This document shows positions 1-6,654 of a stretch of 6,654 nucleotides of DNA, one piece after another (within the stretch, counting starts at the first letter, position 1; every line of letters starts with the position of its first letter). Made by a program: the position numbers and the translations under genes. The notes below the pieces were generated by a model, which was not told where the DNA came from, ran no database searches, and was given only the letters and a program-made list of their open reading frames with translations. This DNA comes from a virus (lineage: Duplodnaviria; Heunggongvirae; Uroviricota; Caudoviricetes): the IMG/VR virus record IMGVR_UViG_3300011952_000025, one strand, 5' to 3'.

Positions 1-697
1 CCATACATATGTTCTGTCATTTTGGTGTTGAACTCGTTTGGTGTCCGAATTGGTAAAGAAGATATTTTGTTTAAAAAAGGAAGTGCTGTCCTCATCGAAT
101 ACAATTTAAAAGATCTTTTTTCGTCAAATACAGATCATCTAATGATCGTAGATGTTGAGGAGAAAACAGTTAATGATTTCTTTAAAAACTACACACTCTC
201 ACCTTTTTCTGTAAGAAGGTTTTATCCGGCATACTTGATAGTAGAATGTGAAGGTNNNNNNNNNNNNNNNNNNNNNNNNNNNNNNNNNNACCGTGGATGT
301 GGTTAGAAATCAAATATCACTTGCATGTCTTGCTGTCTTATCTTCAGAGAAAATAGTGCAAAGTTTTTTGTTCGGAAGTCTTAATAGCTTAGGTTGTAAA
401 GTTAAGGCTATTATTCACTCGGATATCTCAGCGTCATGGAGACTTTGTGATATATCTTCAAGATTATATATGAGCGAGAGTTTGTTAAAAAGAAAATTAA
501 AAGACGAAGGGGTATCGTTTAGTAGATTAATTCTTGAAGAACGAATGATGATGGCGCAAAGATTATTAATTTACAGTAACCATACTGTCGGCAAGGTGGC
601 GGGAATATGCGGGTATGACAATGCATCATATTTTGTAAGTGTTTTTAGAAGATATTTTGGTGTGCCTCCGCACCAATATTTATCAAGATTTTCTTAG
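1..697 (+). CDS. AraC/XylS-family transcriptional regulator; 5' end probably outside the window; interrupted by N-run 256-289
   Basis: C-terminal translation SESLLKRKLKDEGVSFSRLILEERMMMAQRLLIYSNHTVGKVAGICGYDNASYFVSVFRRYFGVPPHQYLSRFS is a typical AraC-type double helix-turn-helix, ending at TAG 695-697. Frame 1 is open from base 1 to the N-run; the post-gap part is in frame 2, so the true gap length is unknown. Visibly AT-rich compared with the phage structural genes. Confidence 0.75.
256..289. other. N-run (34 nt), unresolved sequence inside the AraC-family gene
   Basis: Literal run of n characters; reading frame differs on the two sides. Confidence 0.99.
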
Positions 698-766
698 AAG
701 ATATGATGTGATGGCATTTTATAAAGTTGTTTTTTTGAAGTGTAAGATTATACGATATTTTTAGCT

Positions 767-798
767 ACGCCAGAATAATTGCTGGCGTTTTTCTTTTT
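767..798 (+). terminator. Rho-independent terminator downstream of the AraC-family gene
   Basis: 7-bp stem acgccag (767-773) / ctggcgt (782-788), 8-nt loop, followed by TTTTTCTTTTT (789-798). Confidence 0.6.
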
Positions 799-888
799 GA
801 ATAGATGTTCGGGCCTTACGCTAATGTAATTTTTTTCCTTCTTCGAACCAAACCGTGTACACCATCCGTTATCTGCGGAGGTGAGGCT

Positions 889-1104
889 ATGAAATCCATG
901 GATAAGTTAACAACGGGCATCGCCTACGGCACCTCTGCAGGCAGTGCTGGCTACTGGTTTTTACAGTTGCTCGATAAAGTCACGCCCTCACAGTGGGCGG
1001 CAATAGGTGTATTGGGTAGTCTGGTATTTGGCATGCTGACGTATCTGACTAACCTTTATTTCAAGATTAAAGAAGACAGGCGTAAGGCTGAGAGAGGAGA
1101 GTAA
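889..1104 (+). CDS. S: Class II holin, phage 21 S-like pinholin with dual start (Met1 antiholin, Met4 holin)
   Basis: Translation [71 protein letters not shown] (72 aa). Shine-Dalgarno ggaggtgagg at 876-885. Two predicted transmembrane segments and a charged C-terminus. The MKSM dual-start motif matches the S21 71/68 arrangement as I recall it. Confidence 0.85.
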
Positions 1105-1108
1105 TCCA

Positions 1109-1453
1109 ATGACTCAAGTATACGAACTGGTTGTGAAAGGAGTCCGTAATTTTGAGAATAAAGTTGCGGTAACTTTAGCCTTACAGGACAAAGAACGCTT
1201 TGACGGTGAGATTTTTGACCTTGATATCACTATGGATCGTGTTGAAGGTGCTGCACTGGAGTTTTATGAGGCAGCAGCCAGAAGGAGAATCAGACAGGTG
1301 TTCTTGGATGTTGCTGCCGGGTTATGTGAAGGGGATGAGCAGTCGCCGGAAAAGCGCCCCATAATTTTAGAGGCGCAGAATGTGTGGATAACCTACAAAG
1401 GAAAGCTACCAGGAAGAATTACTGGTTATCTGAAGACTCCGCCGGAATGTTAA
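1109..1453 (+). CDS. Conserved lambdoid-prophage protein of unknown function located between holin and endolysin (YdfR-like by memory)
   Basis: 114-codon ORF starting 5 nt after the holin stop, preceded by gagaggaga. Soluble, charged protein MTQVYELVVKGVRNFENKV... Same strand and tight spacing as the lysis genes. Family assignment is from memory only. Confidence 0.6.
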   Translation: MTQVYELVVKGVRNFENKVAVTLALQDKERFDGEIFDLDITMDRVEGAALEFYEAAARRRIRQVFLDVAAGLCEGDEQSPEKRPIILEAQNVWITYKGKLPGRITGYLKTPPEC

Positions 1454-2997: not shown

Positions 2998-3007
2998 NNN
3001 NNNNNNN
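2998..3007. other. N-run (10 nt) joining two overlapping, diverged Rz/Rz1 segments
   Basis: Literal n characters. Sequence on both sides encodes the same part of Rz (HYRDNAI... onward). Confidence 0.99.
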
Positions 3008-3008
3008 T

Positions 3009-3383
3009 AATCATTACCGTGATAACGCCATCGCCTACAAAGAACAGCGCGATAAGGCCGCATCCATTATCGCTGACATGCAGAAACGTCAAAGTGATGT
3101 AGCTGAACTCGATGCCAGATATACAAAGGAGCTTGCTGATGCTAACGCGACTATCGAAAGTCTTCGTGCTGATGTTTCTGCTGGGCGTAAGCGGCTGCGC
3201 GTCAAAGCAGTCTGTCCCGACATGCATAAAATCACCGCCGCCTCCGGCGTGGATGATGGCACCAGCCCCAGACTTACTGACGCCGCTCAACGGGATTATT
3301 TCACCCTCAGAGAGCGACTGATAATAATGCAAAAACAACTTGAAGGGGCACAGCTATACATTCGAGAGCAATGCCTCAGATAA
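3009..3383 (+). CDS. Rz: Rz i-spanin, second (diverged) allele, 5' end missing at the N-run; carries the complete Rz C-terminus
   Basis: Frame-3 translation from the gap: NHYRDNAIAYKEQRDKAASIIADMQKRQSDVAELDARYTKELADANATIESLRADVSAGRKRLRVKAVCPDMHKITAASGVDDGTSPRLTDAAQRDYFTLRERLIIMQKQLEGAQLYIREQCLR, stop TAA 3381-3383. Confidence 0.8.
   Translation, partial: NHYRDNAIAYKEQRDKAASIIADMQKRQSDVAELDARYTKELADANATIESLRADVSAGRKRLRVKAVCPDMHKITAASGVDDGTSPRLTDAAQRDYFTLRERLIIMQKQLEGAQLYIREQCLR
3139..3321 (+). CDS. Rz1: Rz1 o-spanin (outer-membrane lipoprotein) embedded in the +1 frame of Rz
   Basis: ATG 3139 preceded by aaggag (3126-3131). Translation MLTRLSKVFVLMFLLGVSGCASKQSVPTCIKSPPPPAWMMAPAPDLLTPLNGIISPSESD (60 aa) has a signal peptide, lipobox Cys and proline-rich region, and is wholly nested in Rz. 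Confidence 0.85.
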   Translation: MLTRLSKVFVLMFLLGVSGCASKQSVPTCIKSPPPPAWMMAPAPDLLTPLNGIISPSESD

Positions 3384-3700: not shown

Positions 3701-4121
3701 CTATATTAATGGTCTGTTATTTTCAACATCTTCCATGTACAAAAGATCGTGATCAAACGAATAGTAAAACCTTATGTTTTTATCTATATCTGTAATCCAG
3801 CGATAAACACCTGCTTTTGCTAAAGTGAGACGATATTGATGAAATNNNNNNNNNNTGAAATGTAGATTTACCTGATATAAGATTTCTGGCTGCTTCTTTA
3901 ATTAATTCTGGTTTCTTTGATGTGCTAACTTTCACAAGTCCTCTACTGCCTCGAACTAATAAAATATTATCATCATGAGTAATTAGTCTTATATTATCAG
4001 TAGCCAGATAATAAATATAATGCGCAATATTATGGCGTTTTAATTCGGAGTAAAACCATGGGAAGTATAAATTACTTCTAACGTGTTCGAATATCTCTTG
4101 AAAAATATCTGCCTGCTCCAT
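3701..4121 (-). CDS. Hypothetical AT-rich cargo (moron) protein, about 140 aa, interrupted by N-run 3846-3855; family unknown
   Basis: ATG at 4119-4121 (minus) preceded by aagagga. N-terminal translation MEQADIFQEIFEHVRSNLYFPWFYSELKRHNIAHYIYYLATDNIRLITHDDNILLVRGSRGLVKVSTSKKPELIKEAARNLISGKSTF. After the N-run the most protein-like frame continues FHQYRLTLAKAGVYRWITDIDKNIRFYYSFDHDLLYMEDVENNRPLI to the stop at 3701-3703; the literal-frame ORF in the track ends at 3780 instead. Opposite strand to the late operon and strongly AT-rich. Confidence 0.45.
3846..3855. other. N-run (10 nt) inside the cargo ORF
   Basis: Literal n characters. Confidence 0.99.
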
Positions 4122-5009: not shown

Positions 5010-6654
5010 ATGGGTTTTTCATCAGCCCGAAATTTGGGAAGGGACATATCGGCAGGATTTTCCCCACCACGTCGCATGCCGATTTCGGAGGCTGTTAAAA
5101 AATTCATGCGTGTTCCCAAGGGGGCTGGTAACTCGGTGCCATGGGATCCTGAACTGACACCCTACATCATNNNNNNNNNNATTGAGCCCATGAACTGCCT
5201 GGCATCGCGTGAATACGATGCGGTGATTTTTGTTGGTCCTGCGCGAACAGGGAAGACCATTGGTCTGATCGATGGATGGATTGTCTATACCATCGTTTGC
5301 GATCCTTCGGACATGCTCGTTGTGCAGATGACCGAAGATAAGGCCCGCGAGCATTCTAAAAAGCGCCTCGACAGAACGTTCAGAAGCAGTGCGGCGGTAA
5401 AGAAAAGAATGAGTCCACGTCGTAACGACAATAATGTCCATGATAAGACGTTCAGGGATGGCTCGTTCCTTAAAATTGGTTGGCCCTCGGTCAACATTAT
5501 GTCGTCGTCGGATTACCGGTTTGTCGCCTTAACCGATTACGACCGTTTTCCGGAGAATATCGACAGCGAGGGTGATGGTTTCTCCCTGGCCTCAAAACGT
5601 ACCACCACATTTATGTCCGCCGGGATGACTCTGGTGGAGAGCTCGCCGGGACGTGACATCTGCGACAGCAAATGGCGACGTAAGTCGCCTCATGAAGCGC
5701 CACCGACGACTGGTATTCTTTCCCTTTACAATCGTGGTGACCGCCGCCGCTGGTACTGGCCATGTCCGCACTGCGGTGAATATTTTCAGCCAGCTATGGA
5801 TGCCATGACCGGCTACCGTAATGAACCGGATCCCTTTAAAGCCAGTGAGGCGGCGTATCTACTTTGCCCGCACTGCAGCGGCATTATCACTGCGGAGAAA
5901 AAGCGTGAGCTCAATAGTGCAGGAGTCTGGTTGCGTGAAGGTCAGGTCATTGATCGTAACGGCAACGTTTCCGGTGAACCGCGCCGCTCCCGTATCGCCA
6001 GTTTCTGGATGGAAGGGCCAGCTGCTGCGTATCAGACCTGGGCGCAACTGGTTTACAAATTACTGACTGCAGAACAGGAGTATGAAGCGACAGGAAGCGA
6101 AGAAACACTCAGGGCGGTTATCAACACCGACTGGGGATTGCCTTATCTTCCTCGTGCCAGCATGGAGCAACGAAAAAGTGAACTGCTTGAGCAGCGGGCA
6201 GAGCCAGTTCCTTCCTGCAGTGTGCCGGATGGCGTTAATTTCCTTGTGGCGACAGTGGATGTGCAGGCGGGACGTCATCGCCGTTTTGTGGTTCAGGTAA
6301 CTGGCTATGGCAGTCGTGGCGAACGCTGGATTATTGATCGTTACAATATCACGCAGTCATTGCGCAGTGACTGCGACGGGGAGAGCCAGCGAATTGATCC
6401 GGCCAGCTATCCGGAAGACTGGGATGTCCTGCTGACGGATGTTTTTCATAAAAGCTGGCCGCTGGCCTCCGATCCTTCTCAACAAATGCGACTGATGGCA
6501 ATGGCGGTGGACTCCGGCGGTGAAGACGGGGTCACTGATAATGCCTATAAATTCTGGCGTCGTTGCCGTCGTGATGGCCTTGGTAAACGTATTTACCTGT
6601 TTAAGGGCGACAGCATCCGGCGCGCAAAACTGATCACCCGTACATTCCCTGATA
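5010..6654 (+). CDS. Terminase large subunit, GpA family (ATPase/nuclease), 3' end beyond window; interrupted by N-run 5171-5180
   Basis: aggagg (5000-5005) then ATG 5010. Frame 3 is open to the window end. Walker A-like VGPARTGKT; paired CxxC zinc-ribbon motifs WYWPCPHCGE and LLCPHCSG, as in lambda gpA; continuous GpA-like translation to base 6654. Confidence 0.9.
   Translation, partial: MGFSSARNLGRDISAGFSPPRRMPISEAVKKFMRVPKGAGNSVPWDPELTPYIXXXXIEPMNCLASREYDAVIFVGPARTGKTIGLIDGWIVYTIVCDPSDMLVVQMTEDKAREHSKKRLDRTFRSSAAVKKRMSPRRNDNNVHDKTFRDGSFLKIGWPSVNIMSSSDYRFVALTDYDRFPENIDSEGDGFSLASKRTTTFMSAGMTLVESSPGRDICDSKWRRKSPHEAPPTTGILSLYNRGDRRRWYWPCPHCGEYFQPAMDAMTGYRNEPDPFKASEAAYLLCPHCSGIITAEKKRELNSAGVWLREGQVIDRNGNVSGEPRRSRIASFWMEGPAAAYQTWAQLVYKLLTAEQEYEATGSEETLRAVINTDWGLPYLPRASMEQRKSELLEQRAEPVPSCSVPDGVNFLVATVDVQAGRHRRFVVQVTGYGSRGERWIIDRYNITQSLRSDCDGESQRIDPASYPEDWDVLLTDVFHKSWPLASDPSQQMRLMAMAVDSGGEDGVTDNAYKFWRRCRRDGLGKRIYLFKGDSIRRAKLITRTFPD
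5171..5180. other. N-run (10 nt) inside the terminase large-subunit gene
   Basis: Literal n characters; the frame happens to be the same on both sides. Confidence 0.99.

Follow-up and report, generated by a model that had tools for sequence, protein, structure and literature searches.

A low-GC AraC-family regulator gene with its own terminator upstream of the holin gene of a Qin-like lambdoid prophage

AraC-like regulators encoded by prophages, namely PatE, PsrA/PsrB, and AppY, are an established phage route into Escherichia coli circuits for acid resistance, motility, and virulence. PatE (z0321, located in CP-933H/OI-8 of strain EDL933) and PsrB activate gadE, gadBC, and hdeAB, and PsrA/B (z1789 and z2104) act via GadE/YhiF (PMC10877973); the resulting rise in GadE/YhiF represses secretion by the type III system, and PsrB binds to the promoters of both hdeA and gadE (PMC10877973, PMC13502914). 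AppY of prophage DLP12 in K-12 and the chromosomal, EvgA-controlled YdeO both activate gadE and the acid-fitness island (PMC10057817). For AppY, direct binding to the gadE and gadY promoters, loss of DNA binding by the exchange K170E, an only partial 8-bp binding motif, and H-NS silencing of appY were reported (PMC10057817). ECs1087 was named psrA, and its expression increased upon expression of HnrS, a small RNA repressing hha, though the authors consider this link indirect (PMC13502914); by analogy, the response would be compatible with Hha/H-NS silencing of such genes. Here, we describe an apparently unstudied AraC-type regulator gene at the beginning of a stretch of 6,654 nt from a virus of the Caudoviricetes (IMG/VR record IMGVR_UViG_3300011952_000025), the whole of which is called the window in the following. 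The sequence NZ_AP021933 (L001) served as reference locus.

The open reading frame (ORF) listing of the window contained two plus-strand pieces in different frames (22–306 and 248–697) with a run of undetermined bases (N, 256–289) between them, and an initial annotation made from the letters alone had named a disruption of the gene as one finding that would speak against it. Megablast of window positions 1–1110 against complete E. coli genomes revealed seven records with 100% identity on both flanks of the N-run, in which the 1110-base query covers 1124 bases. Thus, the 34 N stand for 48 bases (16 codons), the seeming change of reading frame (1 to 2) vanishes, and the ORF is intact in these seven genomes. 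The genome from which the window derives probably carries the same 48 bases, judging from the identical flanks. Both pieces (window 1–255 plus 290–697) therefore form one plus-strand ORF of a single AraC/XylS regulator gene with the stop codon TAG at 695–697. Its counterpart in L001 is a coding sequence (CDS) at 7998–8711 for 237 amino acids (aa) (WP_069903857.1, annotated as 'helix-turn-helix domain-containing protein'). Since the match of L001 to the window begins at 8001, the window opens exactly at codon 2, and the gene lacks only its ATG, which lies 3 nt before the window start and, in L001, follows a Shine-Dalgarno-like GGTGG a few bases upstream. Further runs of 10 N start at 2998 and cover 3846–3855 and 5171–5180, with short overlaps relative to L001 at their flanks (6 nt and 2 nt for the latter two, respectively), so that the N-runs look like scaffold gaps of a draft assembly rather than length-preserving masks. 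The features that matter for the regulator are the following:

1–255, plus strand: codons 2–86 of the AraC-like regulator CDS, N-terminal regulatory domain (100% identical to L001 8001–8255)
256–289, no strand: run of 34 N inside the regulator CDS, equal to 48 bases (codons 87–102) in genomes with identical flanks (megablast span, uninterrupted L001 translation)
290–697, plus strand: codons 103–237 of the regulator CDS and TAG (L001 translation, Pfam, superposition on GadX 3mkl)
about 380–694, plus strand: double helix-turn-helix DNA-binding domain (Pfam HTH_18 at residues 158–234, i.e., window 455–685)
767–798, plus strand: intrinsic terminator with a 7-bp stem and 8-nt loop (767–788) and the T-run TTTTTCTTTTT (789–798) (folding, conservation, distribution)
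889–1104, plus strand: holin gene, annotated essD, first lysis gene and downstream edge of the cargo slot (ORF listing, L001 annotation; Pfam Phage_holin_2_1 in the paralogous locus L100)

The assignment to the AraC type, already made in the initial annotation, was borne out by Pfam, with HTH_18 (64.2 bits, cut-off 33.6) and HTH_AraC (49.8 bits, cut-off 26.6) both above their gathering cut-offs in the 237-aa product. Two characteristics define AraC/XylS proteins. The first, a C-terminal domain of about 100 aa with two helix-turn-helix motifs, was detected by Pfam and by superposition on GadX 3mkl. The second, a separate N-terminal regulatory or dimerisation domain, is present in the AlphaFold2 (AF2) model (mean predicted local distance difference test score (pLDDT) 87.5, predicted template modelling score (pTM) 0.80; input alignment headed by the 96% identical protein P0001). 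This model displayed beta strands over residues 3–82, helices next, and then a seven-helix DNA-binding domain. With Foldseek, the C-terminal domain matched GadX 3mkl with a root-mean-square deviation (rmsd) of 1.2–1.5 Å, a template modelling (TM) score of 0.86–0.90, and 39% identity, and full-length matches were obtained to Rns, CsvR, and ToxT (E about 1e-10). A sequence search of solved structures likewise listed the GadX DNA-binding domain as best (E 2.7e-21), followed by Rns, CsvR, and ToxT. Among NCBIfam models, the YdeO equivalog NF007407 was the best, with residues 1–231 aligned to profile positions 1–229 of 253. In the family alignment, C5 and S6 as well as the first recognition helix SESLLK(R/K)KL were invariant, and AppY K170 aligned with the invariant K169 of the regulator. 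In the PHROG database, the protein belongs to phrog_1450 ('unknown function').

For comparison with characterised regulators, we took proteins from annotated genomes, namely ECs1087 and ECs0287 of strain Sakai and AppY, YbcM, EnvY, and YdeO of K-12. BLASTP aligned residues 1–229 or more of 237 colinearly with the YdeO/AppY/PatE/Psr proteins, as is typical of members of this group; the second trait of the group, better acid survival through binding and activation of the gadE, hdeA, or gadY promoters, may also apply to the regulator. ECs0287, which is probably PatE, was the closest (48% identity over the full length, 34% in the N-terminal part, and 66% in the DNA-binding domain), followed by PsrA (ECs1087; 40%, 25%, and 56%), AppY (31%, 23%, and 38%), and YdeO (30%, 19%, and 39%). 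Of GadX, the DNA-binding domain alone could be aligned (42%), and YbcM gave only a local match (11% N-terminally, 25% in the DNA-binding domain). ECs0287, with 247 aa, aligns end to end with the regulator, shares with it the N-terminal motif M..CSVIL and the recognition helix SESLLKRKLK, and is the sole AraC-type regulator annotated in Sakai prophage Sp1. Taken together, we have hardly any doubt that the gene encodes an AraC regulator of the YdeO/PatE group carried as prophage cargo. The analogy drawn in the initial annotation to prophage AraC-like regulators of acid resistance also holds, as the closest characterised relatives (PatE, PsrA/PsrB, AppY) activate the glutamate decarboxylase (GAD) regulon (PMC10877973, PMC10057817). 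An orthologue of PatE or PsrA/PsrB was considered as well and rejected, since near-identity was the yardstick (PsrA and PsrB are 90% identical) and identities to ECs0287 and ECs1087 were 48% and 40%. Regarding psrA of Sakai itself (L003 18678–19391), RefSeq lists 195 aa with a start at 18804, and a 237-aa ORF from the ATG at 18678 fits the family N-terminus MVVVCSVIMV; the annotated start thus probably lies too far downstream.

The genomic setting was derived from L001, in which hokD, rem, ydfU, and the Q antiterminator gene (product 84% identical to DLP12 QuuD) are followed by a lipocalin gene (minus strand), a YbgA-family gene, an AT-rich spacer of 406 bp, the regulator gene, the terminator, and the holin gene. 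Past the holin, genes for YdfR/DUF1327, endolysin (annotated rrrQ), an Rz-type lysis protein, a DUF1398 protein (minus strand), and terminase follow, and these gene names indicate a Qin-like lambdoid prophage. A strong hairpin with T-run lies about 100 nt past Q (L001 5858–5881). The position predicted initially, i.e., the cargo slot directly upstream of the holin on the strand of the late transcript, agrees with this arrangement, as the regulator gene lies on the plus strand between Q and holin, with the holin ATG (889) on the same strand 191 nt past the regulator stop codon. E. coli AS19-RrmA- (L002) shares this gene order; its regulator is 97% identical, and IS3 elements have inserted close by. 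We further examined 80 IMG/VR viral contigs encoding relatives with 84–100% identity, and the order Q, lipocalin, YbgA, regulator, holin was constant wherever the flank was long enough. The same five-gene order occurs in the isolated phages IdasGreatGrand and Lambda_2G7a, and tblastn of the phage collection detected the family in 29 records; 25 are Escherichia phages, and the matches include mEp332, ev099, and a Stx2k phage. Genes for paralogues with 60% (P0013) and 50% (P0016) identity directly follow Q genes whose products belong to other Pfam types. In locus L100, the whole layout recurs, with a terminator past Q, a promoter-like TTGGCA-18-TATACT, the gene, a terminator GCCAGCATTATTGCTGGT plus eight T, and the holin. 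The remote relatives P0024 and P0028 displayed no recognisable prophage lysis context.

Compared with known systems, the slot is that of DLP12 nmpC, which is cargo between quuD and essD. The toxin genes stx of Stx phages are also cargo downstream of Q and upstream of the holin. Both differ from the present case in what is carried, an envelope protein or a toxin instead of a transcription factor. The psrA gene of the lambdoid Sakai prophage Sp4 likewise occupies the cargo region between Q and the lysis genes; unlike here, tRNA genes and not the holin are directly 3' of it, and psr genes are tied to effector loci and Pch regulators in enterohaemorrhagic E. coli. In contrast, the present gene is widespread, with carrier genomes of human, animal, food, and wastewater origin as well as from laboratory stocks. 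ECs0287 borders an insertion sequence (IS) fragment at the end of what remains of a small thrW prophage, and appY is found beside ompT at the far end of DLP12, both outside the Q-to-holin slot, while AppY and YdeO share the full-length alignment with the regulator.

A moron is recognised as a dispensable insertion between phage modules, with a composition unlike that of the flanking phage genes, with its own terminator, and with a promoter of its own that is active in the lysogen, for which the regulator has candidate sites only (see below). With regard to the first point, a holin-including query matched 4364 genomes, while the regulator gene was found in 922, and DLP12 carries nmpC at this place. 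As to composition, a lower GC content than in the phage genes had been noted by eye and was confirmed when computed. Sliding GC values were 0.30–0.35 over window positions 1–750 compared to 0.45–0.50 over the lysis genes; per feature in L001, they amounted to 0.343 for the regulator and 0.313 for the upstream spacer versus 0.472 for the holin, 0.50 for the endolysin, and 0.52–0.54 for the terminase (large terminase 0.54), so that the regulator differs from a range of 0.45–0.54 in its flanks.

The third point concerns the terminator at 767–798, with stem ACGCCAG / CTGGCGT (5 of 7 bp being G-C) and loop AATAATTG. Its folding energy was -11.3 kcal/mol (z = -3.15), and 1 of 200 shuffled sequences was equally stable. 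Since the opposite strand of the hairpin has no T-run, the terminator works in one direction. The hairpin pattern is kept in 70 of the 85 related loci, diverged alleles included, and the only common variation is a loop base (T or C). The spacer bearing it (window 745–872) was detected in 563 genomes, which is no wider a spread than that of the regulator gene (922) and far narrower than that of the holin-including query (4364), so that calling it the regulator's own terminator is justified. Of the strong, own terminator claimed initially, an own, conserved, and intrinsic one thus stands; with the energy given above, we would call it moderately strong rather than strong.

At ≥80% nucleotide identity, the regulator gene occurs in 922 of 5426 complete E. 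coli genomes (about 17%), always on the chromosome, and the alleles fall into two main groups with 95–100% and 80–90% identity to that of the window. The exact protein is encoded on at least 1000 contigs of a large protein collection, with generic names throughout. In all 83 loci with a match from residue 1, the ORF reads through to the stop (714, 726, 732, or 747 nt). Ratios of nonsynonymous to synonymous substitution rates (dN/dS) were 0.18–0.34 across the alleles at dS up to 0.62; the gene is under purifying selection. Between L001 and L051, dS was 0.02 for lipocalin and YbgA, 0.35 for the regulator, 0.20 for Q, and 0.77 for the holin. An unusually fast evolution of the regulator relative to its flanks was therefore rejected, as Q and holin diverged too, and this mosaic divergence is ordinary lambdoid mosaicism. 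A scan of species-representative genomes with peptide patterns, which are narrow and say little on taxonomic range, revealed one close relative (L009) and distant matches to the DNA-binding domain only. The former is a 3.2-kb contig (JARKOR010000151.1) of a metagenome-assembled genome named 'Candidatus Nanosynbacter', with YbgA, the AraC-like gene, and holin at 85–94% identity, and almost certainly represents mis-binned E. coli prophage DNA.

How such a gene might work in a lysogen can be outlined as follows. The regulator would be transcribed from a promoter of its own within the 406-bp, 31%-GC region upstream, outside the window. Here, the search prompted by the initial annotation for start and promoter succeeded in the first respect (ATG at L001 7998); for the promoter, two hexamer pairs are candidates, namely TTTACA-16-TATGAT (L001 7639–7666), conserved in all three allele groups including the otherwise diverged spacer of Lambda_2G7a, and TTGTGA-16-TATAGT (L001 7873–7900), conserved in two. 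As with its relatives, H-NS/Hha would probably keep the gene silent until stress or stationary phase lifts the repression. The terminator would then stop the regulator transcript and keep holin and endolysin unexpressed in the lysogen, where read-through would be harmful. After induction, RNA polymerase modified by Q and starting just downstream of Q would read through the terminator, whereby the regulator would also become part of the late transcript. In host promoters, the protein is expected to bind AT-rich sites close to the -35 element. With 66% (ECs0287) and 56% (PsrA) identity in the DNA-binding domain and conservation of SESLLK(R/K)K, acid-resistance promoters of the gadE/hdeAB type appear to be the likeliest targets. 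No ligand is indicated, and activity is probably set by the amount of protein made. We put the chance that the GAD/acid-fitness regulon is the main target slightly short of even. Host-gene control, the identity of the targets, and transcription in the lysogen are what we infer. For the explanation as a whole, i.e., a horizontally acquired moron of a Qin-like lambdoid prophage, expressed in the lysogen, with host targets of the gadE/hdeAB type and a terminator shielding the lysis genes, we estimate a probability of roughly 0.6.

Several points weigh against this explanation. The NF007407 score of 115.6 bits stays below the cut-off of 348, which together with the full-span alignment marks the protein as a paralogue of YdeO rather than YdeO itself. 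With its characterised relatives, the protein shares only 30–48% identity, and 19–34% in the N-terminal domain, so that target range and input signals may differ from theirs. The equation of ECs0287 with PatE depends on taking Sp1 as the counterpart of CP-933H/OI-8. Every database name is generic, and literature searches revealed no name or study of the gene, although it may belong to the 'six additional Psr homologs' mentioned elsewhere (PMC10877973). Promoter-like hexamer pairs upstream were found at chance level (12 versus 11.4 expected in shuffles), so that we treat the promoter as inferred. The hairpin pattern had no exact match in 15 of the 85 loci, 11 of these by a one-base deletion in the 3' arm. 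Finally, a protein cluster of shorter forms (178–233 aa) has 623 members, which points to truncation or to divergent start annotation in part of the genomes.

Three other explanations were considered and all rated below the one favoured here. The first holds that the regulator acts locally, on the neighbouring lipocalin/YbgA cargo or on phage late and lysis genes instead of a host regulon. Control of adjacent genes is common among AraC-family regulators, lipocalin, YbgA, and the AraC-like gene were always together and in constant order in the loci examined, and a transcription factor of the Rac prophage acting on both phage and host operons was reported (PMC11879457). However, paralogues occupy the same slot without lipocalin or YbgA (Q, gene, and holin in L100; Q and gene in L099), PsrA adjoins a CAAX protease gene and tRNAs, and ECs0287 and AppY are located at prophage ends. 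Moreover, the near-identity of lipocalin and YbgA between alleles, set against the divergence of the regulator, shows that these genes do not evolve as a unit, and the characterised relatives all act on host promoters. Local action is therefore improbable in our view.

A slightly smaller chance still is given to a ligand-sensing regulator of the Rns/CsvR/ToxT kind, the N-terminal domain of which would bind a fatty acid or gut signal and which would have colonisation or virulence genes as targets. Of the solved structures, these three matched best over the full length, by structure as well as by sequence, and the matched Rns and ToxT entries include, by their titles, fatty-acid-bound forms (decanoic acid; unsaturated fatty acid). 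The full-length TM-scores of just 0.41–0.45 at an rmsd of about 15 Å speak against it, though, as does the restriction of the sequence matches to Rns and CsvR to residues 117–236. In addition, the N-terminal domain of the regulator (about 130 aa) looks shorter, the matching DNA-binding domain starting near residue 145 in Rns-type proteins, and for the closer relatives YdeO, AppY, PatE, and Psr no ligand is reported in the literature consulted. That the gene is a decaying, functionless remnant, an AT-rich ORF in a defective prophage, is largely refuted and very improbable, since, although Qin-like prophages are often defective, some copies have neighbouring genes interrupted by IS elements, and shortened protein variants occur, the low dN/dS values, the 83 uninterrupted loci, and the presence of the gene in isolated coliphages as well as in 922 complete E. 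coli genomes argue against decay.

Returning to the favoured reading of a host-directed cargo regulator, its narrower form may be wrong in one respect: a non-GAD host regulon, or a gut-derived ligand sensed through the diverged N-terminal domain, is conceivable, though rather unlikely. If so, carriage of the prophage would rewire host physiology in strains of many origins beyond what PatE, Psr, and AppY lead one to expect, and the diverged alleles (76–86% identical, compared to the near-identical lipocalin and YbgA) could differ in their target range. If, on the other hand, the regulator activates GAD, it would contribute to strain differences in acid tolerance and stationary-phase physiology. 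About one complete E. coli genome in six carries the gene, as do inducible gut coliphages. No specialist will be surprised by a further, so far apparently unstudied regulator of a known class at a usual cargo site, and the value lies in the annotation and in a testable hypothesis. The terminator between cargo gene and holin would also provide a clean example of how a gene in the late operon can be expressed in the lysogen without triggering lysis.

Apart from the regulator, the lipocalin and YbgA cargo (L001 5915–7591) is 97–99% conserved in nearly all related loci, even beside other regulator alleles, and both proteins belong to PHROGs of unknown function. PADLOC found no defence-system model matching the regulator, YbgA, or lipocalin, and an Rfam scan of the window yielded nothing credible, the single match being a eukaryotic small nucleolar RNA model at 26 bits (gathering cut-off 55). 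Insertions of about 1.3 kb were detected between YbgA and regulator (L023, L034), between regulator and holin (L048), and between Q and lipocalin (L053). Locus L040 displayed a larger gap with a shortened YbgA match, and in L002 an IS3 element lies inside YbgA. The holin starts with M-K-S-M, a possible dual start. Further features of the window downstream of the holin are:

1109–1453: YdfR/DUF1327 gene, between holin and endolysin
1419–1691: ORF of 90 aa on the strand opposite to YdfR, overlapping the YdfR end, hypothetical in L001
1797–2330: endolysin gene

At window positions 2998–3307, a 10-N run precedes about 300 nt that repeat the 3' part of the Rz gene at 78% identity. This segment is missing from L001, which matches the window with 100% identity on either side of it (up to 2997 and from 3308 onwards). 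The second Rz part is either a scaffold or assembly-bubble artefact joining two prophage alleles or a real partial duplication of Rz. Between the Rz gene and the small terminase, a DUF1398/YbcV-like gene on the minus strand (about 3701–4121), broken by an N-run and with a GC content of about 0.32, looks like another cargo gene.

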